Source: Candidatus Rifleibacteriota bacterium (GTDB lineage Bacteria; Vulcanimicrobiota; Xenobia; Xenobiales; Xenobiaceae). Taken from it: a stretch of DNA of 64,000 nucleotides. Location of the stretch: assembly GCA_900772775.1 (NCBI GenBank), contig CAAGRW010000043.1, positions 62-64,061 of the forward strand, written 5' to 3'. Below, in pieces: positions 28,544 through 51,897 of this stretch (position 1 is the stretch's first letter; every line of letters begins with the position of its first letter). The notes under the pieces are model-generated. The model made no database searches, had not been told where the DNA came from, and saw only the letters and a list, made by a program, of their open reading frames with translations. Position numbers and translations under genes: made by a program.

Positions 28544-28908
28544 AATTGCCTCACTTGCTTATTCTAATGCGCTCGGTTTATTCACACCTTTTCTTCTTTA
28601 CCCTGCCAAGTAAGCTGTCTTGTTAAAAAAATGTTCTTAAAAAGGAGGAATTTTGTTAAAAATCTAGGCTCTTGTTTATAAAAAGACGAGTAAAATAGTA
28701 GTATTTATTGCTTGCCACGATTTTTTTTATAGTTTTTCTAGGGAAAAAGTGCCGAAAAATCGAGTAAGACGCTTTCTAGTTGTCGATTATTTTGACTTTA
28801 GTTTGCATGCCCTTTTTTTTTTCGTTAAAATGGAGACCTTCGTGCAATTTGGCTAAAAAGGTGGCAGACTTGAAACAAGAGGATACTATTTTGCAAGAAC
28901 AGAGTTTT

Positions 28909-30213
28909 ATGGCCAAGTGTGTTGAGTTATTGGAAAAATTTGCCAATCAGCGCCATGTTTTGGCCTTAAGAGACGGAATGCTCGGTTCTGTGCCAATTAT
29001 TTTGGTGGGCAGCACTTTTTTACTTTTAGGAGCTCAGGGCGAAGTTCTGACTCAGTATTTTGGTGGGGAAGTAGCTTGGTTGCCCAACTTAGTCGATACG
29101 GCTTTAGGCCAATGGTATTTGGCTAATTCTGCCGATTTTTATATCCCTTACCGCTTAACTATGGGTCTCCTGGGGTTATATATCGCCTTCACTATAGCTA
29201 CAGCTTTAGCTAAACAATATAATATGGCTCCCATACCTCAGGGATTGGGAGCTGTGGCAGCTCTTTTAGTGACCAAAGCTCCGAGTAAGGTAGTTTTTGC
29301 CGAGGGTGAGGGAGCACAATGGGCCATTCCTCTCAAACCGTTTGGGCCTGAAGGCATATTCTTAGGCATTATTGTGGCCATTTCTATGGTAGAGTTGTCG
29401 CGCCTTTTTTTGCGTCCCGATCGTCCTCAGGCTGAGCAAGATGAAGTTAGCAAAAGTATTCCGCCAGCGGTGACGGAGGCTTTTGCCGGCTTTTTACCTA
29501 TGTTGGTTGCTGTAAGTATTATTTGGCTTGTCAGCCACGTGTGCGACTTTAATATAAATGAAGGCGTCCTTTGGTTGATGTCTCCTTTAGCCGGTATGGG
29601 TGATACTCTAACGGCTGTAGAAGCTAGCAACTTTTTTCTACATCTTTTTGCCGTGGCTGGCATTCATGGCATTTCTGTCATCAATGCTGTTATGTTGCCT
29701 CTCTGGCAACAGTTTGTGGCTGCCAATGCCGAAGCGCATAGTGCTGGCTTACCTCTACCTCATGTTACCGCTTATCCTTTTTACCAATGGTTTATCTGGA
29801 TTGGCGGCTCCGGAGCTACTTTAGCCCCAACTTGTTTGCTTTTTTTCTTTAAGAACGGCCACTTTCGCAAAGTGGGTAAAATAGCTATTGTGCCGGCTCT
29901 ATTCAATGTAAACGAACCTTTTTTATTCGGCTTACCCGTGATAGCCAATCCTATTTTAGCTATTCCTTGTATTGTGGCTCCTATGATTTGTGGCCTTATC
30001 GCTTGGTGTGCCGTGAGTTGGGGTTTGGTCGGTGCTCCCTTTATTGAAGTGCCGTGGGTAATGCCCGGCTTTTTGGGAGCAATTCTCTCTACGCAAGATT
30101 GGCGCAGCTTGCTGCTCTTTGCCGTTAATTTTTGTGTTAGCGGTATAGTGTGGTTGCCTTTTTTGCGCTATACCGATAAACATGCTGATTTAGGTAAGCA
30201 AGCTAAGAAGTAG
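28909..30213 (+). CDS. PTS EIIC permease, lactose/cellobiose family (orphan: no IIA/IIB/HPr/EI in the window); alternative start 28780
   Basis: The N-terminus ...QRHVLALRDGMLGSVPIILVGSTFLLLG matches the EIIC-cellobiose N-terminal motif. ~10 TM segments. Confidence 0.65.
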   Translation: MAKCVELLEKFANQRHVLALRDGMLGSVPIILVGSTFLLLGAQGEVLTQYFGGEVAWLPNLVDTALGQWYLANSADFYIPYRLTMGLLGLYIAFTIATALAKQYNMAPIPQGLGAVAALLVTKAPSKVVFAEGEGAQWAIPLKPFGPEGIFLGIIVAISMVELSRLFLRPDRPQAEQDEVSKSIPPAVTEAFAGFLPMLVAVSIIWLVSHVCDFNINEGVLWLMSPLAGMGDTLTAVEASNFFLHLFAVAGIHGISVINAVMLPLWQQFVAANAEAHSAGLPLPHVTAYPFYQWFIWIGGSGATLAPTCLLFFFKNGHFRKVGKIAIVPALFNVNEPFLFGLPVIANPILAIPCIVAPMICGLIAWCAVSWGLVGAPFIEVPWVMPGFLGAILSTQDWRSLLLFAVNFCVSGIVWLPFLRYTDKHADLGKQAKK

Positions 30214-31756
30214 GCAAAGAACACAAATTGACCCAGCGGCAAAGCGTATCTCTAGTGAGTTCGCCGCGCCGCAACATTTGCCAGGCCAAAAGGGCCAATT
30301 TACTAAAATTTAAAGCTTGAGCCAAGTAGCGTATCTGAGTCGGATGGCTTTGCAAATATGGGGAAGAAGCCAAAAATTTTATAAAGCTAAGCGGCACTGG
30401 CTTGGATAAAAGTGTATAAATTGAATACCAAAAAGTATCTTCTGCCGGGCGTGGCCAGGAAAGAGAAACGCGAAATTGTTTAAGACATTTATCGTTGCGA
30501 CCTTCTACTTGATCGGGGGTAATGGTGCCGTCAGCTAGATAGTGCTCGGTAATATCTGTCTGTGGCCAATAAGACAAAGAAAAGAGATAAAGATCGTAAG
30601 GCCTGGGCAATTGAGCCAAAAGCTCAAAAAGCTGTCTCTTTTCTTGGCTAGTGACGTGCGGATCGTCCAAAAGTATCTGGTAACAAACTTTTAAATCAAG
30701 TTCATGCAATATGCGTCCAGCTTCCAATACTTTTTGATCGCTTACTTCGCGATTGTATAGGCGTTTATTGACTGCGCTAATATGCTGAATGCCCATCATA
30801 ACTGTGTCTAAACCGACGTCTTTTAGTTGTTGCAATATTTCTTTTTGCACTACACGCGGATCAGTTAAAATTTCAAAAGGCAAATCAATTTTTTGTTGTC
30901 GATAAAGGTGGCAAAATTTTTTAACCCATTCCGGACGTAAGCAAAAAAGCTCATCATCAAAACGGAAACGGCGCAGATTGGGAAAATTTTGCTTGGCATA
31001 TACGCACTCTTCCACTGTGCGCTCTGGACTCATAACGCGATAGAATTGTCCCAGATCTTTATAACTTTTGCGCAAAGCACTGATGTCGCAATACGAACAA
31101 TTAAAAAGACAGCCCCGCGCCGACATCATCAGGTATATAGTTTGATCTATGTAAGGATCGCCTGAGGTTAGGTGGTTATTGTTTATATAATATTTGCTTT
31201 CATGAGAGTGAAAATCGCGAAAAGGCAAATCGTCCAAGTTGTTGTGTAGGCGGCGCGGGGCATTGCGCACTATTGTACCGTCGGCTTCTTTGTACCACAA
31301 ACCGTCAATGCCTTGCCAAGAGCGCTGTTGCTCTAAAGCTTCCATAAGTTCAACGATAGTGTCTTCACCTTCGCCTATAATAATGCCTTGGCAAGAATTT
31401 AAAGCACTTTCGGGATCCATGGTGACGTGCATTCCGCCCCATATTATTGGTAAGTTAAATTCTTGCCTGAGCTTTTTACTTAAACTTTGGGCCAATTTGC
31501 TATAGCCGCCAGCTCGTACCGATAAGCCAATAAGATCTACTTTTTCGCGATGTAAGGTCTCAGAAAGCAGAGTATATTCCTTATCGCTGGGTTCGGTAAA
31601 ATGGTGATGCTGATAATCTTTAAAGTAAATTTCGATTACGCGCCAACCTTGAGAGCGCAAGGAAGAAGCCAAAAAACGTATACCATTGTTTTCGACTATA
31701 TAGAGAGAAATAAGAGCGATAGCTTTACGCTTGGGGCAAGCGTCCGATGTGGCCAC
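30203..31756 (-). CDS. cobalamin (B12)-binding radical SAM protein (class B)
   Basis: N-terminal B12-binding Rossmann-like region and the radical SAM cysteine triad CLFNCSYC (Cx3Cx2C). It is the last gene of the pgpH-ybeY-Nudix operon. Confidence 0.7.
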   Translation of the reverse strand: MATSDACPKRKAIALISLYIVENNGIRFLASSLRSQGWRVIEIYFKDYQHHHFTEPSDKEYTLLSETLHREKVDLIGLSVRAGGYSKLAQSLSKKLRQEFNLPIIWGGMHVTMDPESALNSCQGIIIGEGEDTIVELMEALEQQRSWQGIDGLWYKEADGTIVRNAPRRLHNNLDDLPFRDFHSHESKYYINNNHLTSGDPYIDQTIYLMMSARGCLFNCSYCDISALRKSYKDLGQFYRVMSPERTVEECVYAKQNFPNLRRFRFDDELFCLRPEWVKKFCHLYRQQKIDLPFEILTDPRVVQKEILQQLKDVGLDTVMMGIQHISAVNKRLYNREVSDQKVLEAGRILHELDLKVCYQILLDDPHVTSQEKRQLFELLAQLPRPYDLYLFSLSYWPQTDITEHYLADGTITPDQVEGRNDKCLKQFRVSLSWPRPAEDTFWYSIYTLLSKPVPLSFIKFLASSPYLQSHPTQIRYLAQALNFSKLALLAWQMLRRGELTRDTLCRWVNLCSLPTS

Positions 31757-31781
31757 AGACTGACTCCTACTTGAAATAAAG

Positions 31782-32669
31782 CTAAATCAGCTTGGCAGTA
31801 TGTAAAATATGCTTGGCTTGCTGTAAAATGTTCTTTTCGCTCTGATAATAGAGCTTGCGCCAAGCTTCACCAAAATCGAACCAGGCCACTTCAGAAGCTT
31901 CTCCATCTGGCACAGAGGCATTTTCTTGAATTAAAGGCATAAGGAAGAAAGTGACCATCTTATAATAGAGAGTGCGATTATCTCGCCAATAGAAGTAGTA
32001 TTCTATCTGGTCGATACGTTCGGCAATGGTGGCTAAATGGCCAGTTTCTTCCAGCACTTCTCTGGTGGCTGTCATTTCCCAAGTTTCGCCACTCTGTACT
32101 CTGCCTTTGGGTAAAGCCCAAACGGCGCCTCCTTTTTTAGCAATAAGGCACACTTTTAATTTGTCTCCTTCTTGCTTGTAAAGGACGCCGCCGGCTGATT
32201 GCTGGATGGCATGATGGCTTTTGGCTTCTTGTTTGTCTTTTTCCTCGGCGCTCACGATTGTAGTATCGGCCGGAGGGCGCAAACTTGCTTCCAAAGCTAA
32301 AGTGATAACTTTATTTGGTTTTAAGCTGTCGTATAAAGCAAAGTTTACTTTCAGAGAGCGAGCCAAGCGACGGGCTCTTTTGTGCAATCCCAAAATGCTC
32401 AAATCGTCTATTGTGGGATTATGCAACAGACTGCGGATCATCTTGGCATTATTTAAGAGTATTTTAACTTGCGTATATTTGTGCTCGGAAGCCCACAACA
32501 AAGCCATAATTACCGCTTGGTACTGTGCTTGTGCGGTAGTGGCAATGCCTATATTTTCGGATACAAGCACTCGACTGCCGTCTGGAGTTTCGATAACCAG
32601 ACCGACGCCGGCGCTTCCCGGATTGTTGCGGGCTGTTCCGCAAGTATGTATTACTAGACTCTGTGTCAC
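31782..32669 (-). CDS. fusion protein: N-terminal RNase H-like (RVT_3-type) domain with all catalytic acidic residues substituted, plus a C-terminal Nudix hydrolase domain with an intact Nudix box
   Basis: N-terminus IHTCGTARNNPGSAGVGL...AQAQYQAVIMAL...KILLNNAK versus the RNase HI pattern TDGS...NNRMELMA...STDSQ. Canonical Nudix box GRVQSGETWEMTATREVLEETGH (Gx5Ex7REUxEExGU). Confidence 0.65.
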   Translation of the reverse strand: MTQSLVIHTCGTARNNPGSAGVGLVIETPDGSRVLVSENIGIATTAQAQYQAVIMALLWASEHKYTQVKILLNNAKMIRSLLHNPTIDDLSILGLHKRARRLARSLKVNFALYDSLKPNKVITLALEASLRPPADTTIVSAEEKDKQEAKSHHAIQQSAGGVLYKQEGDKLKVCLIAKKGGAVWALPKGRVQSGETWEMTATREVLEETGHLATIAERIDQIEYYFYWRDNRTLYYKMVTFFLMPLIQENASVPDGEASEVAWFDFGEAWRKLYYQSEKNILQQAKHILHTAKLI

Positions 32670-32675
32670 TTTAGC

Positions 32676-33329
32676 TTATTTTGTGTAGACTTCAGCTGCC
32701 ATTTTGGGAATTGAATTAAAGCCCATAGCTTCCACTATGGCCAATTCATAAGTGCGCATAACTTGGCGGGTTTCTTCTGTAGGATGATCAAAACCTACTA
32801 AATGAAGCATAGCGTGGGCGACCAACCAGGCGATCATGTGGCGCAAACTAATGCCGTCTTCTTTAGCTTGGCGTTTAGCTGTGTCTAGGCTGATAACAAT
32901 TTCACCTAAATAAAGGTGTACATCAGGATAAATAAGCAAAGCGGGCTCGTCTTCCCAAGCGGGAAAGCTCAAAACATCGGTAGGGGAATCGACTTGACGA
33001 AATTCTTTATTGAGAGTGTGAATGGCCGAATCAGTAACAATAGAGAGCTCAACTTCAAATTTTCGTTGATCGATAGTTGGGGCCGCTTCGTCTTCATTGA
33101 CCATTTTGCCTAAGCATTTAAATAAGCCTATCTTTTGATCGATTACGCGTACGGCTTCGTAAACGGCTTGGCGATAGAAGTTCTTGGAAACTTCGGCAAA
33201 ATTTTCTTTTGTTTTATTGAAAAGTTCTGTTCTGACTTTTAATGAACGTCCACGCATTTTTAGGCTGCTCCTCATAGCAAAAAAAATCTCGGCCCTATTT
33301 TCGATTTTGACCGCTATATTTTCTCGCAA
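32676..33329 (-). CDS. ybeY: rRNA maturation endoribonuclease YbeY (N-terminal start uncertain; the ORF is longer than typical)
   Basis: Zn-binding motif HAMLHLVGFDH and the NVLSFP block. Confidence 0.85.
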   Translation of the reverse strand: MRENIAVKIENRAEIFFAMRSSLKMRGRSLKVRTELFNKTKENFAEVSKNFYRQAVYEAVRVIDQKIGLFKCLGKMVNEDEAAPTIDQRKFEVELSIVTDSAIHTLNKEFRQVDSPTDVLSFPAWEDEPALLIYPDVHLYLGEIVISLDTAKRQAKEDGISLRHMIAWLVAHAMLHLVGFDHPTEETRQVMRTYELAIVEAMGFNSIPKMAAEVYTK

Positions 33330-33377
33330 AACGCTTTATCAAAGGTATTTTCTCTTGTCGCCCCGGCTAAACCCTCC

Positions 33378-35558
33378 CTAAGCATCTTTCTTTTTTATTT
33401 CTGCTGCCGTTTTAGCTTGAGAAGCTTCTGAGGGAGCTGAAGCTGGTTGGGAGGGAGTGGGCGCAGGCGCAGCGGACTGTTTACCCATGGTCTTAGAATC
33501 GGGATAAGCTACGCGATTATGATAATGGCTAGTCAGAGAACGCAAAATTGAGGCTTTTACCGTATTTATATCGCGCATTGACAGGGGACATTCGTCCAAT
33601 TGGCGGTTGTTGATAATACCACCCACAATTTTATCAATTAAATTCTTTAAATTCTCTCTGTTGGGCACAGGCAGAGTGCGTGAAGCGGCCTCGATACCGT
33701 CGCACATCATAACAATGGCCGTTTCTTTGGATTGTGGACGCGGCCCCGGATAGCGGAAGTCTTCGGCAAAGACTGGTTCGTCGTCTTGCATCTTGGCTTT
33801 CTGATAGAAGAAAGAGGCCAAATTGGTACCATGATGTTCAGGAATAAATTTAGCTATTTCCGGAGGTAACTTGTACTTTTTGGCCATTTCTTGGCCGAGC
33901 TTAATATGGGAAATTACTATCATTGCTGACAAAGCCGGAGGCAACTTGTCGTGAGGATTCTCGTGGCCGGTTTGATTTTCGACGAACATGTTGGGCTGTC
34001 TCATCTTTCCCAAATCGTGATAGTAGGCACCGGCTCGGCACAACATGCTGTCGGCGCCTATAGCTTGGGCGGCTGCTTCGGCCAAATTGGCTACCATAAT
34101 AGAGTGCATGTAAGTTCCTGGAGCTCTGTTAAGCAATTCATGCAAAGCTGGCTCATTAGGATTGGCCAATTCCAAGAGGCGAATATGGGTAGTTACTTTG
34201 CAAGCGCCTTCTAAGAAAGGCAGAGCTCCGGAGGCGATTAAAGCCGGCAACAAACCGTTAAGGCCTCCGTAGAAGAGGGCACACACAGCCAATTCTTCAA
34301 AACTGTCACAGTTGCTTAAAGCAAAAATAGCTACGACCAATACATTTATGGCCCAGACCCAAAGAGAAGCCGTTACTACGTTCCAGCGTTTGTTGGCATT
34401 TTGTACAGCTAAAGCGCCAACCATGCCCGTAATGAGTACGGAAACGGCAGCTTCCAGAGTGTTGGTCATTATACCCGAGTAAATCCCCAACATGCTGACA
34501 ATCATTAAAGACAAACGAGGATCGGCCAAAATTGAAATCAGCATACTGGTGAAGGCAATAGGTAACAAATAAGGCGAGATCATGGTCGTATAGCGAGAAA
34601 CAACCACAAAAGCGACACAAAGAAAAGCTACGCCGAATACCAAACGCAAATTATTGTAAAATTTTGGTATATAAAGCTTTATATAGTAGTTGGCCAAAAT
34701 TTGCATGACCAACACCATAGTGCAATATATGAAGAGAGCGCTCCAAGTGATGCCTTTTTTGTATACGCCTAAAGCCTCTAAAACAGGCACGTCATGTTCG
34801 CCTACAATGTCGCCTTCGCGAATGACAATCTGTCCGGGGAGGATAGTTTTAGTGATAGGCTCTACTTTATCGCTGGCTTGGATTTTGGCTTGTTGAGTGG
34901 CATTGTAGTCAATAAATTTGTTGGGGACGAGGGCTGCTCTAGCTAGTTCTGCATCTATAGAGGCGTTGGCTTCGGTAAGGCCGGGTAAAGCTCTGGCTTC
35001 TTGTTCAATACGTTTGTAGGCAGCATCTATTTCATCTTCGCGTACACCGGTTTGCATAACTACGCCGAGAATATGCTCGCTATTTGTATAGTATTGCTCT
35101 AAGGCGGGAACACTGGCGCTAAGTAAAGTTTTGACGGTAGCTAAGCCCAAATCCAAGGGCACTTGTGCGGATACGTCGGCTACTTCTTTGTCGGTAAATT
35201 TACCAGAAGCATGTCCTCTCTGAGCTTCACGAATGATATTGAAAGTTTGGCTGATCTTATTTTTGCTTATCTCTAAAGATTGAGGGCTGATATTTTCGAT
35301 AGAAGCAACTTGGGAAGCGGCTTGTTCTTTGGCTTTATGCCAACGCTGTTCGTCTACAATTTGCACTGAACGTGAAGCTTTTATATCCCAGGGAGCAGGT
35401 TTACCTACTTCTACTCTATTGATGTTGGGCAAATCGGTCACTATGAGCATAGCCACGGAAATTACATAAACAAAAATGCCTATGCCTAAGCAAATAAGTT
35501 TGTTCCGATCATACATAGATTGGAATATGTCTTTTATTCTAGCCAAAAAATTCGCCAT
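33378..35558 (-). CDS. pgpH: 7TM receptor with intracellular HD hydrolase domain (PgpH/YqfF-like HDIG phosphodiesterase)
   Basis: An extracellular N-terminal domain, 7 TM helices, a C-terminal HD domain (YYHDLGK), and the conserved pgpH-ybeY gene order. Confidence 0.8.
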   Translation of the reverse strand: MANFLARIKDIFQSMYDRNKLICLGIGIFVYVISVAMLIVTDLPNINRVEVGKPAPWDIKASRSVQIVDEQRWHKAKEQAASQVASIENISPQSLEISKNKISQTFNIIREAQRGHASGKFTDKEVADVSAQVPLDLGLATVKTLLSASVPALEQYYTNSEHILGVVMQTGVREDEIDAAYKRIEQEARALPGLTEANASIDAELARAALVPNKFIDYNATQQAKIQASDKVEPITKTILPGQIVIREGDIVGEHDVPVLEALGVYKKGITWSALFIYCTMVLVMQILANYYIKLYIPKFYNNLRLVFGVAFLCVAFVVVSRYTTMISPYLLPIAFTSMLISILADPRLSLMIVSMLGIYSGIMTNTLEAAVSVLITGMVGALAVQNANKRWNVVTASLWVWAINVLVVAIFALSNCDSFEELAVCALFYGGLNGLLPALIASGALPFLEGACKVTTHIRLLELANPNEPALHELLNRAPGTYMHSIMVANLAEAAAQAIGADSMLCRAGAYYHDLGKMRQPNMFVENQTGHENPHDKLPPALSAMIVISHIKLGQEMAKKYKLPPEIAKFIPEHHGTNLASFFYQKAKMQDDEPVFAEDFRYPGPRPQSKETAIVMMCDGIEAASRTLPVPNRENLKNLIDKIVGGIINNRQLDECPLSMRDINTVKASILRSLTSHYHNRVAYPDSKTMGKQSAAPAPTPSQPASAPSEASQAKTAAEIKKKDA

Positions 35559-35658
35559 TATGATACTCTCGCTCGTTATGCTGCCTACTTAGTTCTAGTC
35601 ATTATGATTAAAGCCTTGCTTATAATTGTGAGGTTGGGAAGGCTTATCTTGGCAAAAA

Positions 35659-36447
35659 ATGGCAAGATGCAGCGTCGGCGAGCGCACAAAAGGTGCCCTT
35701 CGTTCGAGAATAGGCGAAATGTTGCATGGCCAAGAAAAAGGTTTGAAATTCCGATATGGCGAAAGTTCCGGCATGAGTGAACTTCAAAACAATCCCTGCG
35801 AATGCAAAAAAGATGAATTGCTTGAGATCTTCTTGGGTGGCGATTTAGCCTCTGCCGAGACTCAGGAAAAAGCGGCAACCGATTCCGAAAGAGCCGAACG
35901 TGAAAAGCTCGGATTAGCCAAAGTTGCTGAAGAATTGAGTGCCAATCCTAAGTCTTTAGAGGGAATTGCCTTCGAGTTGTTGGGCAATTTGCTGCTGGGC
36001 GGCGTCAGTGTTGTTGACAAAGTGGCTGAGCTGATGATGGATAAAAATCCGGCCGGCTACGTCAATGCCATATTTAAAGCTGCCGACAGATGTACTGTCC
36101 CCTATGTAAAATTTACTTTAGTCCGTGCTGTTTTCAGACGTTATCCCGGTCGTTATCGTCCCTATATCATGGCTTTAGGGCGAGAACTTATTTCTGGAAC
36201 GTTTGATGAACACACTATAGATGTAACTTTATGGCTGTTGCAAAAATTTGGCGCCGAATTGCTTCCCGATTTGGTCACTTTTATGCGTGCCGAAGGTCAC
36301 GGCCAGGAGAAAATTAAAGTTTTGACTGATGCCGTGCAAATGTTGGGCGGGGCAGCTCTGCCTGTAGTCACCGCTGCTGCCGACAGCGCCGACGCCGAGT
36401 TGGCTCAGGCTGGTACCGAAGCACTTAAACGTATTGGTCAAGCTTAA
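35659..36447 (+). CDS. hypothetical HEAT/ARM-like repeat protein (start ambiguous: 35659/35719/35773)
   Basis: Helical repeat-like sequence with a PBS-lyase/HEAT-like C-terminus (AELAQAGTEALKRIG). No SD is clear for any candidate start. Confidence 0.35.
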   Translation: MARCSVGERTKGALRSRIGEMLHGQEKGLKFRYGESSGMSELQNNPCECKKDELLEIFLGGDLASAETQEKAATDSERAEREKLGLAKVAEELSANPKSLEGIAFELLGNLLLGGVSVVDKVAELMMDKNPAGYVNAIFKAADRCTVPYVKFTLVRAVFRRYPGRYRPYIMALGRELISGTFDEHTIDVTLWLLQKFGAELLPDLVTFMRAEGHGQEKIKVLTDAVQMLGGAALPVVTAAADSADAELAQAGTEALKRIGQA

Positions 36448-36543
36448 TATGCGCTTGTTGTTATAGCCATTTTTTGAAAAAGGGCAGCTCCGTTTGGGGC
36501 CGCCCGGTTTTTTTTCTAAAGAATTTATTCTTGGTGAGAGAAG

Positions 36544-37527
36544 TTGAACAATTACGAAAACGGATCAGGCAATTCTTCCCTTCGCCCCATTCATTTGGCT
36601 GTCGTTTTGGCAATAGTCTTTCATTTGATGGCCCTGACCGCTTTGGCTTGGTATAGCCCCAAAAAGGATAACGATGAAGACAGTTTGCGTATTGTAGCGC
36701 AAGTTTCTTTAGCTGATTCTATCAAGCTGCCTGAGGCTGTGCGCAAGCCTGTGAAAGCTCCTCCGGTAAAGCCCAAGAAAATAAAACCGTACGATCCCGA
36801 GCTTTACAAAAATGTGCCCAAAACGAGCATGGATAAGTATGGAGTAGCTCCTGGCAAGATAGGACGCCCCGGCAAGCCTGGAGCTCCAGGTGATCCTGCC
36901 CAAAAAATAGGCAAAGGCTCAGGACGTTCGGGTTTACGTACAGCTATCGATCCTGATATGCCCAAATTGGGAGTTTCTGCTATGGGCAATCCCGGTTATC
37001 CCACAGGCCACGGCTATGGCAAAGACGGCTCAAAGTTTGGCAAGCATTCCGGCTTCGGTGAAGATGGCGGAGGCCAAGGCGGTGAAGGGGGAGATGGCGG
37101 TGAAGGTGGTCAAGGCGGTGTAATCGTCAAAGATCTTATCTACGTTATCGAGCCCGATCAGACTATCTCTGTCTACGAAAAACAAGTAGATCCAGCTCAC
37201 TATATGTCTGATAAAGCTCGTATTACCAACGAAATAGGACAGTTCGTATGTGTCTATTTGGCTTCCAGATTTAATGTTACTGTTATCAACAATAGTGATG
37301 AACGGCTCAATTTCCGTTTTGAAGGCGAAATACACCGCGGCGAAAGCTACAACGGATTGAATCGCATTCTCGATCCCTATTTGTGGGGCGATTTGGCTCC
37401 TGGTGAATCTCGTTGCATAAACGATTTAACTGTAGCTAGTGGCTATCGCGATGTATCTATTTCCCATTTGGAAGATCCCGTAGGGACGTTTTTTAATATT
37501 GAGCATATGCTCTTTATTCCGCAATAA
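36544..37527 (+). CDS. hypothetical membrane-anchored protein with a Pro/Lys-rich linker, collagen-like Gly-X-Y / GGxGG low-complexity region and a C-terminal ~130-aa globular domain
   Basis: TTG start. The TM is LAVVLAIVFHLMALTALAWY, followed by PVKAPPVKPKKIKP, then GRPGKPGAPGDP and GGGQGGEGGDGGEGGQGG. Confidence 0.4.
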   Translation: MNNYENGSGNSSLRPIHLAVVLAIVFHLMALTALAWYSPKKDNDEDSLRIVAQVSLADSIKLPEAVRKPVKAPPVKPKKIKPYDPELYKNVPKTSMDKYGVAPGKIGRPGKPGAPGDPAQKIGKGSGRSGLRTAIDPDMPKLGVSAMGNPGYPTGHGYGKDGSKFGKHSGFGEDGGGQGGEGGDGGEGGQGGVIVKDLIYVIEPDQTISVYEKQVDPAHYMSDKARITNEIGQFVCVYLASRFNVTVINNSDERLNFRFEGEIHRGESYNGLNRILDPYLWGDLAPGESRCINDLTVASGYRDVSISHLEDPVGTFFNIEHMLFIPQ

Positions 37528-37614: not shown

Positions 37615-39540
37615 TCACATTTTGTGCAAGGAATAGAGCATAACTTTATATTCCTTAGTTTGAATTGCTGTAGCAAAGTATATCGGAGCGGATCCGTCAT
37701 TAGTTAGCAAGCGCCTAATTTTTGCTGGTTCGGTAGGAGTAAAGCCGAGGGGAGTTACGTCTATAACGTAATCGTAGCGATAATCTTGTCTATTATCCAT
37801 AATATCAATTAGTTTCTCAGCTTGTTCTGGATAGAAGGGCTTGAGGTTTAAAATATTGCGATATTGCTCCAGGCGTACTGTTTCCTTAGTGTGGAAATCT
37901 TCGTAGCTAACTAAAACAGGTACAACTGAGCCTCGGTGAAAATTGGCCCAAGTTTGCAAACCGATTTTAAAAGATTCAGCTGGATTGGCGTTTATAACAG
38001 TCTCGTGAATAAAAATAGCCGCCAGCTTGGGAGGACAATTGGCATTATAATAAGTTGGTGTGATCAATTTTTGGCCTAATTGCCAACCGCCGGAAAAAGG
38101 AAGAGTTGCCGTCGATGGATACATGGACAAACTTGTGCACATTGTTAAAGTGCCACATTGGGTGTTGCTATGGACTGTCTGTTGGTATTGCGGATTGAGT
38201 ATTGAATACATAATATTGCACCAAAACATTAGGCTAGCTAAAGCTAAGGCTAAAGCATAGCCATAAGGAATACGGCGGAAGAAAGCGGTATAAAAGCAGC
38301 AACCGAAGGCTACAGCCGGTAAAATATAGCGTACAGCCGGGCTGAGCATAACTATAGATATTAAGCTGGCCAGCAAACAGGAGATGAAAGTGAGGCGCTC
38401 TTCCAGAGTGCCTTGCTGGCGCCAGCAATAAAGGGCGCCTAACAGAGTAATTATTGTAACCGGTAAGCCAACGTAGCCTTCGGCTAAACCGTGAATATAT
38501 TGGTTTAAACTCAGAGTAGATAAATTATTGAAAGTTTGCCAGCCCAAGTGATGAGAGCGCCAAAACATGGTAGCGGCGTTGGCGGAAGCCCAAGGGAAAA
38601 AGAGCAAATAAAAACCGGCAAAGGCCAAGTTTAGATTGAGCATCAGGCGGCCAATTCCGTCACTAGCAGCTTTGTCTATTTCCGGCTTCCATAGATAATA
38701 AGCCTCCAAAGTTAAGCCAATAGCCCAAGCTACAGCACTACCAATTAAAATAATTTTATAGGTGGGAAAAAAACTGCTATAGTCGACGGTGCAAGGTGGC
38801 CACAGGTGGGTGCGGCAAGCTGCCACAATAGGAAAAAGTGAAGCGGCGCATATAGTTAAAACTGAAATAAAAACTTTGCTTTTGTAAGGCCAAAGTTGGG
38901 GAAGTTTTAAAATAAAAAGCAAAAATAGAGGCGGGGCAGCGAAAAAAACAGTAGTTGGTTTACCAAGACAGCCTAATCCTAGAGCCAAACCGAAGGCCAC
39001 GGCATAGTTAGTCTTTTGCATTAGGCTGGAATTGAAAAACAGGCATAAGCAAAGCGCTGTGAAGGCTGTTGAGGGATAATCAACCACATAGCTGTTCGAG
39101 CCCAAAGCCAAAAAAGGAGTAGAGGCGCAGATCGCAGCCGTGGCAGCGGCGGCCATTAAACCGTACTTGGGGCGCACTGTGTAATAAAGCGAGGCTACAA
39201 GTATGGGAAAGTAGAGCATTTGACTCATCATAGCTGACATCAGGCCGCGCCCTATGAAAAACGAACTTAAATAAGCTGACCAATACATGCCCGGAGGATA
39301 AGAACTGGGCCAAAAAAGAAAGGTCAGTATCTTTTCCATTAAGCTGGAGCAATTTTGTAAACGCAATTCCATGGCCGAAGCTTCCAAGAAATGGTGCGCG
39401 TAATCGGCATGAGGTGGATAAGCGTAATTTATTTGCCAAATCAAGTTGGCTTCTATCACGACGCCACTTATAAATGCGATAATCAATAAATCGGCCAGCC
39501 AGCCCCATTCCAAATTGTTGATTTTTTTCAAAAAGGCCAT
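37615..39540 (-). CDS. large polytopic membrane protein, GT-C-type glycosyltransferase-like (ArnT/PMT-like); the longer ORF runs to 39726
   Basis: About 12 or more TM helices and a C-terminal soluble domain. The ATG at 39540 is preferred because the upstream TTG at 39726 lacks an SD and would overlap the divergent lipoprotein gene by 41 bp. Confidence 0.4.
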   Translation of the reverse strand: MAFLKKINNLEWGWLADLLIIAFISGVVIEANLIWQINYAYPPHADYAHHFLEASAMELRLQNCSSLMEKILTFLFWPSSYPPGMYWSAYLSSFFIGRGLMSAMMSQMLYFPILVASLYYTVRPKYGLMAAAATAAICASTPFLALGSNSYVVDYPSTAFTALCLCLFFNSSLMQKTNYAVAFGLALGLGCLGKPTTVFFAAPPLFLLFILKLPQLWPYKSKVFISVLTICAASLFPIVAACRTHLWPPCTVDYSSFFPTYKIILIGSAVAWAIGLTLEAYYLWKPEIDKAASDGIGRLMLNLNLAFAGFYLLFFPWASANAATMFWRSHHLGWQTFNNLSTLSLNQYIHGLAEGYVGLPVTIITLLGALYCWRQQGTLEERLTFISCLLASLISIVMLSPAVRYILPAVAFGCCFYTAFFRRIPYGYALALALASLMFWCNIMYSILNPQYQQTVHSNTQCGTLTMCTSLSMYPSTATLPFSGGWQLGQKLITPTYYNANCPPKLAAIFIHETVINANPAESFKIGLQTWANFHRGSVVPVLVSYEDFHTKETVRLEQYRNILNLKPFYPEQAEKLIDIMDNRQDYRYDYVIDVTPLGFTPTEPAKIRRLLTNDGSAPIYFATAIQTKEYKVMLYSLHKM

Positions 39541-39685
39541 TTGTTCGTCTACTCCATGCCCACAATTGGGCAAAAGTTTGTCGCTTCGCTTTTCCTTATC
39601 CTTTTTTGTAAATGCAATAATGTAGCCGATTTTAGCTTGTTTGGCAGGTAACTTGTCAGTTTGGTGCTGAATGGGGACGCTAGCT

Positions 39686-40192
39686 ATGAAACGCCTCGGA
39701 ATTGTCTGTCTGCTTTTAATTATCAATTTATTGCTGCCCGGATGCCGTAAATACGATGTCGATCGTGATGTATTGCCGCCCGGTACTCCTTATACACGTG
39801 AAAATAACGCCGCTTCGCTGTGGCTTTATATATATTCGGATAGAATTGAAAAGCGTTTGGATGGCAAAATTGCAGACAACCAAGGGGTAATCTTTAATAT
39901 GGATTGCTATATTAAGGCTGTAAATTTAAGTTCCGAACGGTGCCTATTATGGATCGAAAATGACGATCCTAAAACTGAAGTTTTTTCTGGATTTGAACCT
40001 TTATCTGCTAGGAGCGATCTTGCGGAAAAAATTACTTTTATGTCCGGTGAAACGCGCACTTTACGTATACCCATGCAATCTTCTTTTACTATTGCTTTAC
40101 AAATTGGCGAAGTTGTCAAACGTGAGCGTTGGCATGTGAAACAAATAGGCGGCCAATGTTTGGATGATCACAAGCAAAAAAGTGTACCTTAA
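39686..40192 (+). CDS. hypothetical lipoprotein
   Basis: Signal peptide MKRLGIVCLLLIINLLLPGC with a Cys lipobox-like site. GGGGA lies 7 nt upstream of the ATG. Confidence 0.45.
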   Translation: MKRLGIVCLLLIINLLLPGCRKYDVDRDVLPPGTPYTRENNAASLWLYIYSDRIEKRLDGKIADNQGVIFNMDCYIKAVNLSSERCLLWIENDDPKTEVFSGFEPLSARSDLAEKITFMSGETRTLRIPMQSSFTIALQIGEVVKRERWHVKQIGGQCLDDHKQKSVP

Positions 40193-44870: not shown

Positions 44871-46325
44871 ATGGATTCTGCTGCTGATAAAAAATCAAAG
44901 CCCCGTGCCAAATTGCCCTCTTGGATGATAGAAGAAGAGCCTGAAGTACAAGAGGAAGTGGTACTTTCACCCAAAGTGGCTGAGGCGGCCCCCTCTGTCG
45001 CTTCTGTGGAGAATGAAGATGTACTTTTGGGAGCTCCTAACGCTTCTTACGCTGCCGAATCTGATGATTTTTGCACGCCTTCGTCTCCTCTGGGAACTCT
45101 GAATGAAGTTGAGGTGCCGCCTGGTTTTACCTCGATAGCCGACCATGAAATAAAGGAAGCTCCCCTGAGCGCTGCTCCAAAGGCCTCTGAAGCAAAAGAG
45201 GCGACCGAGTCTACCAAAGAAGCTGCTAAAGAATCTGCTGTTCCGCAGAGCCAAGAAGAAACAAATGACGATCCCAAAGTGGCCAGAATCAAAGCTGATA
45301 TGGCCGAATTGGAGAAAGTTGTCAACAGTTTAGAATTTTTGTCTTATCTCAAACCTCGTTTAAACCGTATTCGCAAAAGCGGCTGTGAGGTCGGCGACTT
45401 AGTGGGGCTTTATCGTATGGCCTCTCAAGTTATGCTGGAAAATATGCAACGCCAGACAGAGATAATGAAGCGCAATAAAGCCGAGTACGAACGCCAAATG
45501 CGTCAGCTTCAAGAAGAGGTTCTTTTTGAGCAATCTAGTGCTCTAGTTACAGGTAAAGCTCCCACGAAAAAATCTTATGCTTCCCAGCGTTTGGCTGCTG
45601 CCGCCGAAGCGGCTGGTGTGTGTGTTAGCGCCGCAACTGGACAAAGCGCCCCAACTTCAGCTCCCGAACAGCCGAAGCCGACTTCTGAAGCTAAGCCTGA
45701 AGAAAACGCTCCGGATAATAACGCTATAGCTGCTTTGCGCCGACAAATGGAATATAAGGACAGCTTGTTGCTCAAAGCTCGCTTGGAAGCTGAAGATGCC
45801 GAAAAGCGTTGCGAAAAGATGGCTCAGGATGTCGCCAATATTAAGGCTCGTCTGGAAAAAGATCTTAAACTTAAGAGCCAGAAGGCCAAAGAAGCACTTT
45901 TTAATCGTTTGTTGCCGGTCATGGACAGCTTTGATGGCGCCTTGAAGTCGGCTTCTGATACGCAAGATTCGTCCAGTTTATTGGCTGGCTTAAAACAAAT
46001 TCACAGTCAATTGCTCGATTGCTGCCAAGCTGAAGGTTTAGAAGCTATAGAAACTGATGGCCGTCCCTTTGATCCCAACTTCCATGAAGCTATGGGCCAT
46101 GTAAAAACTAACGCTGTGCCCGAAGATTGTATCTATGATGAGTTGCGTCGCGGTTATATGCTTGATGGCAAGTTGTTGCGCGCTTCCATGGTACGTTTAG
46201 CTAGCCCAGATCCTGATGCTCCATCATCAACTGAAGTTGAAGCCAACTCTGCTTCGGTTGAAGCAGAACCTACCGAAGCCGAAGCAAAGCCTGCTGAATC
46301 TGAAGCTGAAGTTGAATCCAAGTAG
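44871..46325 (+). CDS. grpE: nucleotide exchange factor GrpE with a ~280-aa N-terminal extension (acidic/disordered plus coiled coil; contains an EVPPGF motif)
   Basis: C-terminal GrpE core LLPVMDSFDGAL...ETDGRPFDPNFHEAMGHV...RRGYMLDGKLLRASMV. It is followed by dnaK and dnaJ. Confidence 0.8.
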   Translation: MDSAADKKSKPRAKLPSWMIEEEPEVQEEVVLSPKVAEAAPSVASVENEDVLLGAPNASYAAESDDFCTPSSPLGTLNEVEVPPGFTSIADHEIKEAPLSAAPKASEAKEATESTKEAAKESAVPQSQEETNDDPKVARIKADMAELEKVVNSLEFLSYLKPRLNRIRKSGCEVGDLVGLYRMASQVMLENMQRQTEIMKRNKAEYERQMRQLQEEVLFEQSSALVTGKAPTKKSYASQRLAAAAEAAGVCVSAATGQSAPTSAPEQPKPTSEAKPEENAPDNNAIAALRRQMEYKDSLLLKARLEAEDAEKRCEKMAQDVANIKARLEKDLKLKSQKAKEALFNRLLPVMDSFDGALKSASDTQDSSSLLAGLKQIHSQLLDCCQAEGLEAIETDGRPFDPNFHEAMGHVKTNAVPEDCIYDELRRGYMLDGKLLRASMVRLASPDPDAPSSTEVEANSASVEAEPTEAEAKPAESEAEVESK

Positions 46326-51488: not shown

Positions 51489-51565
51489 GGGCGAATAGCT
51501 CAGTTGGCTAGAGCACCTGCGTCACATGCAGGGGGTCACAGGTTCGAGTCCTGTTCCGCCCACCA
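51489..51565 (+). tRNA. tRNA-Val (anticodon CAC)
   Basis: Cloverleaf by eye: D-stem GCTC/GAGC, anticodon stem CCTGC/GCAGG with loop GTCACAT, T-arm ACAGG-TTCGAGT-CCTGT, 3' CCA encoded. Confidence 0.7.
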
Positions 51566-51604
51566 TTATGTGAGGGACTAAGGCAAAAGAAGAATATGCG
51601 GTAT

Positions 51605-51681
51605 GGGGGAGTGGCCTAGAGGCTTAGGGCGCTGGCCTGTCACGCCGGAGGTCGCGGGTTCGAATCCCGTCTCTCCCGCCA
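51605..51681 (+). tRNA. tRNA-Asp (anticodon GTC), copy 1
   Basis: Acceptor GGGGGAG/CTCTCCC, anticodon stem CTGGC/GCCGG with loop CTGTCAC, T-loop TTCGAAT, GCCA end. Confidence 0.75.
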
Positions 51682-51702
51682 AATATCTTCTTCTTTTTGT
51701 CT

Positions 51703-51778
51703 GCCGGGGTAGCTCAGTTGGTAGAGCATGCGACTGAAAATTGCAGTGTCCCCAGTCCGAATCTGGGCCTCGGCACCA
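51703..51778 (+). tRNA. tRNA-Phe (anticodon GAA)
   Basis: GCCGGGGTAGCTCAGTTGGTAGAGC...ACTGAAAAT...TTCGAATC...CACCA. Classic Phe tRNA. Confidence 0.8.
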
Positions 51779-51820
51779 CCAAAATGGGCGCAAGCTTGTT
51801 TTGAAAGAACGCAGCGGTAT

Positions 51821-51897
51821 GGGGGAGTGGCCTAGAGGCTTAGGGCGCTGGCCTGTCACGCCGGAGGTCGCGGGTTCGAATCCCGTCTCTCCCGCCA
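51821..51897 (+). tRNA. tRNA-Asp (anticodon GTC), copy 2 (identical to copy 1, including 7 nt of 5' flank)
   Basis: Exact repeat of 51598-51681. Confidence 0.75.

Follow-up and report, generated by a model that had tools for sequence, protein, structure and literature searches.

Probable Lineage-Specific Remodelling of a pgpH-ybeY-dgkA-Type Operon in an Uncultured Gut Lineage of Xenobia

A stretch of 64,000 nucleotides from a Candidatus Rifleibacteriota bacterium (contig CAAGRW010000043.1 of GenBank assembly GCA_900772775.1; this whole stretch is herein referred to as the window) carries four closely packed minus-strand genes that encode a PgpH-like 7TM-HD protein, YbeY, a fusion of an RNase H-like domain to a Nudix domain and a class-B-type radical S-adenosylmethionine enzyme (herein rSAM). 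We consider it probable that this locus is a lineage-specific, remodelled form of a pgpH-ybeY-dgkA(-corC) operon whose genes share expression and not a pathway, and in which the rSAM is a functional, dispensable passenger. Four same-strand genes with short gaps are unremarkable on their own; the locus stands above chance because relatives whose flanking genes differ keep this order too. The features that the argument draws on are as follows (window coordinates).

33378..35558, minus strand: pgpH-like gene, 726 aa; extracellular 7TMR-HDED, 7TM and cytoplasmic HD/HDIG domains
33258..33377, minus strand: pgpH-ybeY spacer, 120 nt; T8 run at 33279-33286, AGGAG at 33268-33272
32676..33257, minus strand: ybeY with corrected start, 193 aa; zinc motif HAMLHLVGFDH
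33329..32676, minus strand: longest open reading frame (ORF) of ybeY, 217 aa from TTG
31782..32669, minus strand: RNase H-like/Nudix fusion gene, 295 aa; GTG start
32295..32669, minus strand: RNase H-like (RVT_3-type) N-terminal domain of the fusion, residues 1-125
31782..32204, minus strand: Nudix C-terminal domain of the fusion, residues 156-295 plus stop
30203..31756, minus strand: class-B-type radical SAM gene, 517 aa; GTG start
35560..35587, minus strand: sigma-70-like hexamer pair TAGGCA-16-TATCAT directly 5' of the pgpH ATG; a consensus match only
28780..30213, plus strand: convergent phosphotransferase system (PTS) EIIC gene, lactose/cellobiose family; TIGR00410 276 bits vs cutoff 236

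Gene Order in Related Lineages

The nearest named proteins belong to Candidatus Bruticola (Vulcanimicrobiota, formerly Eremiobacterota; class Xenobia), and the closest loci come from metagenome-assembled genomes (MAGs) of human (Hadza) gut and goat rumen. The pgpH-ybeY-Nudix trio is present in 13/13 related lineages examined, in at least four downstream contexts and with ybeY-Nudix gaps of -23 to 116 nt (6 nt in the window). The four-gene order described in the initial annotation is not unique to this genome: it extends over nine lineages, to ~48-50% PgpH identity, and is followed there by EIIC and suf genes, by an aminotransferase gene, or by unknown genes plus type II secretion system (T2SS) genes. 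The arrangements that depart from that of the window, or continue differently, are these.

L164, L165 and L170: pgpH-ybeY-dgkA-corC with 4-nt overlaps, a 121-aa opposite-strand gene, then the fusion gene; no rSAM gene
L169: four-gene order as in the window, followed by unknown genes and T2SSF
L167: four-gene order as in the window, followed by genes for an aminotransferase, Exo_endo_phos and RsfS
L168: flanks as in L167; rSAM gene absent
L174-L176 (one species, 21 contigs): pgpH-ybeY-fusion, then directly T2SS genes; rSAM gene absent
L084: EIIC 3' end ~20 nt past the fusion stop, the same EIIC flank as in the window; rSAM gene absent
L177/L178 with L009: fusion gene followed by rSAM codons 1 to ~35 only, after which comes foreign DNA that includes an XRE-type helix-turn-helix gene

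The three deeper relatives (L164, L165 and L170), in which the fusion protein is 46-49% identical to that of the window and has DEDN or DDDD at the catalytic positions of its RNase H domain, place pgpH-ybeY-dgkA-corC where the window has pgpH-ybeY followed by the fusion gene, which bears out the earlier proposal that dgkA-type downstream genes have been replaced. The arrangement with dgkA after ybeY would thus be the older state, and the window locus a clade-specific derivative of a pgpH-ybeY-dgkA-type operon. Still more distant fusion genes adjoin clpB (L166, labelled Chloroflexi), adenine deaminase and tldD (L171), hsp20 (L172) and ileS-lspA (L173), and ybeY is not adjacent to the fusion gene in any of these four lineages.

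The rSAM gene is the variable member of the locus. Among the lineages with pgpH, ybeY and a catalytically dead fusion it is intact in nine, absent in three and disrupted in one, so that co-conservation of the four-gene order holds within the clade and is weak where the rSAM is concerned (absent in L084, L168 and L174-176; split in L177/L178 plus L009). The three rSAM-negative lineages nest separately among rSAM-positive ones in neighbour-joining (NJ) trees of the fusion alone and of PgpH, YbeY and fusion combined. One of them, L084, is a 1035-nt metagenome contig whose fusion is 94% identical to that of the window (84% nucleotide identity); the leftover similarity at its junction (901-936) is explained by the EIIC C-terminus, and it is from the phylogenetic nesting, not from a scar, that we infer loss here. 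The disrupted copy is documented at both ends: after the fusion gene the rSAM reading breaks off at 7941-8045 of L177/L178, and L009 begins with a DNA methyltransferase (1-640; DPFCGSGTT), after which the rSAM resumes (residues 28-517). L178 and L009 come from one goat-rumen MAG (GCA_017458675.1), and the same split junction recurs in an independent metagenome (L177); an insertion therefore splits the rSAM gene in this lineage. The simplest history compatible with these trees and gene orders would have the rSAM gene gained once, then lost at least three times and disrupted once.

The pgpH and ybeY Genes

The initial identification of the four products (a PgpH-like 7TM-HD protein, YbeY, an RNase H/Nudix protein and a radical SAM protein with the motif CLFNCSYC) agrees with Pfam and NCBIfam searches. 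The pgpH product has the complete three-part PgpH/7TMR-HD architecture (PF07697, 128 bits, residues 50-266; PF07698, 93 bits, residues 274-457; PF01966, 60 bits, residues 482-624; TIGR00277 HDIG, 88 bits). Listeria PgpH hydrolyses cyclic di-AMP; no diadenylate cyclase was seen in Pfam scans among window ORFs of at least 150 aa. YbeY is recognized by TIGR00043 (119.4 bits vs cutoff 45) and PF02130 (118 bits), and its translation contains the zinc motif H-x3-H-x5-H.

In the ORF list the gaps across the four genes are 48, 6 and 25 nt, as initially described; the first of these values stands for the longest ybeY ORF and not for the probable gene. The first 24 codons of that ORF are not conserved, whereas a YbeY start MRG(R/H)SLKV behind an AGGAG is common to five relatives (L001, L004-L006 and L008); its window counterpart is the ATG at 33257 (MRGRSLKV), with AGGAG 10 nt upstream. 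This conserved start gives a YbeY of 193 aa and a pgpH-ybeY spacer of 120 nt rather than 48. Orthologues of pgpH stand upstream of ybeY in all related loci, with spacers of 33-394 nt in relatives, and the two genes overlap by 4 nt in the deeper relatives.

A Pseudo-RNase H Domain on an Ap4A-Hydrolase-Like Nudix Protein

The N-terminal domain of the fusion protein matches PF13456 (28.9 bits vs cutoff 21.6), and a profile search of the Protein Data Bank (PDB) retrieves LC11-RNase H1 (3u3g) and the N-domain of Rv2228c at E=1e-24 to 1e-21; Halobacterium (archaeal) RNase HI is also matched by the family profile, the three matches together spanning E=1e-24 to 1e-19. The catalytic columns were read by alignment with E. 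coli RNase HI. At the positions of E. coli D10, E48, D70 and D134 the residues of the window protein are C, Q, N and I/T; with 0/4 catalytic acidic residues, the description of this domain as a dead RNase H is upheld, and on the strength of this alignment it is predicted to be catalytically inactive and should not be classed as an RNase H enzyme. Intermediate family members (P0080, P0083 and P0089; L167-L169-type) keep D70 alone of the four residues, and deeper relatives have DEDD (P0105, P0108), DDDD (P0095) or DEDN (P0092), which suggests that the dead domain is a derived state reached by stepwise loss of catalytic residues.

The dead domain shows no sign of decay. In comparisons with L004, L005, L006, L008 and L084 its ratio of nonsynonymous to synonymous substitution rates (dN/dS) lies at 0-0.07; the Nudix domain has values of 0-0.02, and the whole fusion, at 0.005-0.04, is the most constrained of the four genes. 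The Nudix domain (PF00293, 60 bits) has an intact Nudix box, GRVQSGETWEMTATREVLEETGH, at 32037-32105; the pattern G-x5-E-x7-RE-x2-EE-x-G is invariant in 21 family members (G189, E195, R203, E204, E207, E208 and G210), among which V205 and L206 vary. Its best solved relatives are the Aquifex diadenosine tetraphosphate (Ap4A) hydrolase 3i7u (93 bits), Chlamydia CT771 (68 bits) and the Nudix domain of mycobacterial MutT1 (9cxx and 5gg5, E=1e-16 to 5e-15; NF052459, 62 bits), and the Ap4A-hydrolase-type subgroup includes the RppH-type RNA pyrophosphohydrolases. The NCBIfam Nudix equivalogs MutT1, RppH and MutT are all far below cutoff for the fusion protein. Four aromatic residues (Y224, F226, Y227 and W228), 13-17 residues past the Nudix box, are invariant; Ap(n)A hydrolases presumably have a Tyr at about this distance, which we take as a lead and not as a test.

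The architecture is rare: among 1.84 billion proteins, 24 cluster representatives were retrieved at E<=1e-30, of which about half are full-length RNase H/Nudix fusions, with a variable linker between the two domains. The metagenome matches to the fusion alignment were for the most part Nudix genes of a single domain; L084 and L085 came from this search. Three family members of 162 aa (P0106, P0107 and P0111) are stand-alone Nudix proteins, 56-67% identical to the window Nudix domain and without an RNase H-like domain; perhaps their gene calls are truncated, or perhaps they come from lineages that shed the dead domain.

The Radical SAM Protein Lies outside Curated Families

The last gene of the locus encodes a protein with a B12-binding domain (PF02310, 53.6 bits vs cutoff 32.1) and a radical SAM domain (PF04055, 58.5 bits), the cluster motif CLFNCSYC (CX3CX2C) of which lies at 31088-31111; its cysteines (C216, C220 and C223) are invariant in 26 homologues. 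An AGGAG at 31764-31768 stands 7 nt before the GTG start. The NCBIfam/TIGRFAM search ended without an assignment, of HpnP/BchE type or otherwise, no equivalog reaching its cutoff and every one missing it 5- to 10-fold in score. The leading scores were as follows.

HpnJ: 77.0 bits vs cutoff 577.6 (best score)
ladderane-type lipid rSAM (rSAM_ladder_B12): 69.3 bits vs cutoff 360
HpnR: 68.6 bits vs cutoff 650
BchE: 64.3 bits vs cutoff 481

The named class B subfamilies HpnJ, HpnR, BchE, ladderane lipid rSAM, ApyD, BzaD, PhpK and others were rejected on their curated cutoffs. By sequence profile the PDB yields weak matches, the best being AprD4 (41 bits), with TokK and TsrM at ~27 bits. An AlphaFold2 model built from 26 homologues (predicted local distance difference test, pLDDT, 92) recovers MgmA, TsrM, OxsB, AprD4, CysS and TokK in Foldseek at template-modelling (TM) scores of ~0.6 and 12-17% identity (E=1e-22 to 1e-14 for MgmA, TsrM, OxsB, CysS and TokK), and has a C-terminal helical region that is family-specific. 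The model thus points to a class-B-type radical SAM protein outside the curated families, the fold search giving the generic class B fold alone. Use of cobalamin is predicted from the B12-binding domain only, and AprD4, the best PDB sequence match, is an enzyme that we take to have such a domain while being cobalamin-independent. Where the gene is present its dN/dS is 0.09-0.11, indicating purifying selection, at a value 2.5-4x that of the neighbouring genes in the better-resolved comparisons (L005 and L006).

The wider family was surveyed with one genome per species, which gave 213 relatives, of which 80 loci were fetched and searched by tblastn with the window proteins. Among these 80 loci the order pgpH-ybeY-Nudix-rSAM is restricted to close relatives, namely L004-L008 (rSAM 75-95% identical; EIIC and suf flanks as in the window) and L012 from goat rumen (rSAM 61% and PgpH 48% identical). 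At ~70 loci with an rSAM of at most 44% identity, which by their record titles belong to Myxococcota, Lentisphaerae, Kiritimatiellia, Chloroflexota and others, there is no PgpH, YbeY or Nudix gene within 8 kb. Their commonest neighbour, in 29 loci, is a ~370-aa SPASM radical SAM gene, which often immediately adjoins the rSAM homologue with an overlap of 4-11 nt; other recurrent neighbours are LPG_synthase_TM, a large membrane protein, FAD/NAD oxidoreductases and RmlD. The ybeY-linked rSAMs form one clade in an NJ tree, with L010 and L011 as sister group; the former has a PP-loop-like gene and a SPASM rSAM gene at its flanks, and the latter is divergent from a GT2 glycosyltransferase gene. The rSAM gene is a single-origin, dispensable addition to the operon, with a wider family found in neighbourhoods quite unlike that of the window. 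The window copy has no SPASM partner.

Several observations concern the distant loci themselves. The two-rSAM cassettes (SPASM plus B12-type, 37-44% identity; for instance L018 6719-7882, L021 6853-7899 and L055 6243-7316) appear to be uncharacterised, and NCBIfam models applied to the SPASM partner and the other neighbours gave generic matches far below cutoffs. A partner shared consistently between the window neighbours (PMT_2, the unknown divergent genes, EIIC and suf) and the distant loci was sought and rejected; the best case is a 225-aa gene without assigned function, at 3/~70 loci. A second rSAM paralogue, 39-40% identical, is found elsewhere in two goat-rumen Xenobia-like MAGs (L028 3642-6427 and L035 6745-9518), in each immediately following a gene for an aldo-keto reductase that includes a ferredoxin domain.

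Transcription Signals

Indications of co-transcription come from spacing. The ybeY stop is followed after 6 nt by the fusion GTG, and the fusion stop, after 25 nt that include the AGGAG, by the rSAM GTG; these gaps leave no space for promoter or terminator signals, and no such site was found between any two adjacent genes of the four, the last two included. At the 3' end the stop of the rSAM gene and that of the convergent EIIC gene overlap by 11 nt (30203-30213), leaving no space for an intergenic terminator 3' of the rSAM gene; an 11-nt overlap of the same stops is also seen in Bruticola (L001 11538-11548). From this layout we judge it very likely that ybeY, the fusion gene and the rSAM gene are co-transcribed, and likely that pgpH belongs to the same transcript.

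The promoter and terminator scan gave matches at or below shuffle expectation, with a consensus that may not be that of the host phylum; 9 sigma-70-like pairs were found in the region vs 11.3 expected, and hence no enrichment. TAGGCA-16-TATCAT is the sole promoter-like match in the 100-nt divergent intergenic region 5' of pgpH, and in any intergenic region. A riboswitch or leader in the pgpH-ybeY spacer was considered and rejected, as Rfam has no match at E<=1 in 30000-36000 and the spacer folds no better than its shuffles (z = +0.85 in the window, +0.16 in Bruticola), with no stable hairpin in the window. Between pgpH and ybeY of Bruticola stands a terminator-like hairpin with six G-C pairs and a T-rich tail (L001 8426-8441), the window counterpart of which is the T8 run at 33279-33286 only; a hairpin of the Bruticola type could part pgpH from the tight ybeY-Nudix-rSAM unit.

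A Model for the Remodelling and Its Alternatives

We hypothesize that in the ancestor an RNase H/Nudix gene whose product had acidic residues at all or most of its catalytic positions formed a separate unit just 3' of pgpH-ybeY-dgkA-corC. Deletion of dgkA-corC, if the rearrangement ran in this direction as we presume, would have put the fusion gene directly behind ybeY; the RNase H catalytic residues would have been lost next, while the domain was kept under strong purifying selection, and the dead fold is probably a non-catalytic binding module on the Ap4A-hydrolase/RppH-like Nudix domain. A class-B-type rSAM gene, from a family that elsewhere seems to pair with SPASM rSAM and membrane or redox genes, would then have been captured once at the 3' end of the operon. 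In the extant locus ybeY, the Nudix gene and the rSAM gene would lie on one transcript, each with or near a Shine-Dalgarno motif, with a start that is probably upstream of pgpH; the 120-nt spacer may add attenuation or a second start. YbeY would mature 16S rRNA, PgpH would act as a membrane HD phosphodiesterase, and the Nudix protein would hydrolyse dinucleoside polyphosphates or 5'-polyphosphate or Np4-capped RNA ends. The rSAM would act on a small molecule, glycan or lipid and not on RNA, a reading we prefer because of the nearest hidden Markov models (HpnJ and the lipid rSAMs), of AprD4 and of the SPASM and membrane genes that stand beside its relatives. That the genes are expressed together but share no pathway is our default reading because "satellite" genes of ybeY and era are already on record: in the literature on these two genes such metabolic satellites (cdd, dagK, pdxJ and acpS) are called "enigmatic" (PMC10582724), and the Nudix and rSAM genes of the window may be likened to the satellites cdd, dgkA and pdxJ that other bacteria have around these two genes.

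Several points weigh against this default. The four-gene block is kept in three downstream contexts, which is more than would be expected of a neutral passenger, and the rSAM is under purifying selection where it is present. The Nudix gene is never parted from ybeY in the clade, which could mean real functional coupling and not inertia. In reading the rSAM as a lipid or small-molecule enzyme we draw on the neighbours of paralogues that are 37-55% identical, the substrates of which may differ, and the NJ trees are simple ones that carry no bootstrap values.

The initial annotation had proposed, as one possibility, that the locus is an RNA/nucleotide modification-and-turnover module. On this reading the class B rSAM would methylate or otherwise modify RNA or a signalling nucleotide that is then turned over by PgpH or the Nudix protein. 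Tight spacing on a shared strand, retention of the order in nine lineages and three downstream contexts and purifying selection on the rSAM are what such a module would lead one to expect; however, three separate losses and one disruption of the rSAM left the remaining three genes untouched, and its wider family occurs without ybeY, pgpH or Nudix genes and pairs with SPASM rSAM, LPG_synthase_TM, FAD/NAD oxidoreductase, RmlD and GT2 genes. The closest enzymes, by matches that are far below cutoffs, act on small molecules, lipids or peptides (HpnJ, ladderane-type lipid rSAM, HpnR, AprD4, TsrM and MgmA) and none on RNA, and we know of no class B radical SAM enzyme that acts on RNA. Nothing links the rSAM to RNA or nucleotides, and we regard the four-gene module as very unlikely; the proposal keeps a weak plausibility for the Nudix protein and loses its support for the rSAM. 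A narrower version of it, which we hold to be less likely than the default but reasonable, makes of the dead RNase H domain, the Nudix domain and YbeY a trio for RNA-end surveillance: the dead fold would bind structured RNA or an RNA:DNA hybrid and present 5' ends to an RppH-like Nudix domain for removal of pyrophosphate or Np4 caps, with YbeY in rRNA maturation and ribosome quality control and with PgpH and the rSAM as bystanders. It gains from the adjacency of ybeY and the Nudix gene in all 13 lineages (gaps of -23 to 116 nt), from a fusion that is the most constrained gene of the locus (dN/dS 0.005-0.04) with the dead domain included, and from the closeness of its Nudix domain to Ap4A-hydrolase-type enzymes (3i7u, CT771 and MutT1); a precedent is MazG, a nucleotide pyrophosphatase that binds Era, the partner of YbeY (PMC10582724). 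The distant fusions (L166, L171-L173), however, never adjoin ybeY, and in the deeper relatives a gene on the opposite strand sets the fusion gene apart as a unit of its own, so that the adjacency can be explained by a single deletion and inheritance. Taken to its furthest extent, the same idea would make ybeY and the pseudo-RNase H/Nudix gene an undescribed RNA-end surveillance pair in which the dead fold recognises structured pre-rRNA or an RNA:DNA hybrid and the Nudix domain strips 5'-pyrophosphate or Np4N caps, licensing YbeY-dependent maturation or decay, and in which the rSAM, in rSAM-positive strains, is the first class B radical SAM enzyme on an RNA or nucleotide substrate of the pathway; we offer this as a very improbable speculation.

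The remaining alternative concerns transcription and would divide the locus into two units, pgpH alone and a ybeY-Nudix(-rSAM) unit driven from the 120-nt spacer. The length of the corrected spacer (33-394 nt in relatives), the Bruticola hairpin with its six G-C pairs and T-rich tail and the T8 run in the window all speak for such a division, which is nonetheless unlikely given that the spacer has no promoter-like hexamer pair, that the window spacer has no stable hairpin (z = +0.85), that pgpH and ybeY overlap by 4 nt in the deeper relatives and that co-transcription of pgpH and ybeY is the rule in Firmicutes. The single remodelled operon with a dispensable rSAM thus remains the reading we favour, and in the neighbourhood of ybeY and era membership of a pathway should not be read from spacing and strand.

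Comparison with Known Systems

The locus varies a known type of operon and draws on two protein families that are uncharacterised. In the Firmicute-type operon phoH(ybeZ)-pgpH(yqfF)-ybeY(yqfG)-dgkA-cdd-era-recO (Bacillus, Listeria and Staphylococcus) pgpH stands immediately 5' of ybeY, as in the window, and a ribosome-maturation RNase likewise lies beside unrelated membrane and metabolic genes; the deeper relatives of the window organism share with it a dgkA gene after ybeY. Unlike the Firmicute-type operon, the window has a divergent Pfam-less gene and not phoH upstream of pgpH, and the RNase H-like/Nudix fusion and class-B-type rSAM genes in the downstream slots. No dgkA (DAGK_prokar), corC or era gene was found in the window by Pfam scans of nearly all ORFs of at least 150 aa and the focal genes, a search that a short cdd could escape. 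The composition of the era/ybeY operon has been described for S. aureus (PMC6738653), and binding of Era to the nucleotide pyrophosphatase MazG is on record (PMC10582724); a literature search found no paper that combines pgpH, ybeY and operon.

Other proteins join a nucleic-acid or nucleotide hydrolase to a second phosphohydrolase, as does the window fusion: RnhC/Rv2228c (RNase HI plus a CobC-type acid phosphatase) shares its RNase H domain (3hst, E=2e-21), and MutT1 (Nudix plus histidine phosphatase) its Nudix domain. The window fusion differs from both in combining RNase H-like and Nudix domains, with an RNase H active site that is abolished in the window clade, and it falls far short of the NCBIfam equivalog cutoffs (62 vs 475 bits; 38 vs 326 bits). 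Enzymes of Ap4A-hydrolase/RppH type (3i7u and CT771) are single-domain proteins of ~135-155 aa with a Nudix box that is intact in the window fusion too; unlike them, the fusion carries a pseudo-RNase H domain at its N-terminus, together with a linker that varies. The DUF429-NUDIX proteins met in a literature search on RNase H/Nudix are an unrelated RNase H-like clade.

Like the class B enzymes TsrM, MgmA, OxsB, TokK and CysS, and like AprD4, the window rSAM has an N-terminal Rossmann-like B12-binding domain before the radical SAM core; it differs from the solved class B enzymes in its low identity (12-17%) and its own C-terminal helical region. In archaea the GMGT synthase gene gms (a SPASM/Twitch rSAM) lies beside gmm or grs (a B12-binding methylase or ring synthase) (PMC11214058), a two-gene pattern that resembles the SPASM-paired distant homologues in gene arrangement only, and from which the window copy departs in having no SPASM partner.

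The direct importance of the locus is modest: it documents how pgpH-ybeY-dgkA, a housekeeping operon of deep conservation, has been remodelled in a gut lineage that is uncultured. In one branch of a rare fusion family, an RNase H domain has become a strongly conserved pseudoenzyme tied to ybeY, and the fusion is a tractable test case for an RNA 5'-end or Ap4A-linked function near ribosome maturation in bacteria. The rSAM family offers natural present, absent and disrupted variants in near-identical backgrounds, ideal for comparative metabolomics or for mapping of RNA modifications.

Other Features of the Window

The remainder of the window is ordinary chromosome, with ftsY, copA, glyA, a T2SS cluster, a suf operon, PFOR, grpE-dnaK-dnaJ-prmA-rsmE, four tRNAs and recA-recX-rny. 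Upstream of pgpH lie two genes without a Pfam match (35659-37527, plus strand, and 37615-39726, minus strand), one of them Gly-rich (GGxGG), accompanied by a PMT_2 (GT-C) glycosyltransferase gene; Bruticola (L001) and L177/L178 share this conserved block, which is unrelated to the gene neighbours of the distant rSAM homologues. The GrpE ORF (44871-46325) is 484 aa long with the GrpE domain confined to residues 278-444, and thus has a ~277-aa N-terminal extension without Pfam match, unless the true start is internal. Downstream of prmA-rsmE, the four tRNAs (Val-CAC, Asp-GTC, Phe-GAA and Asp-GTC) form a tight array at 51489-51897.

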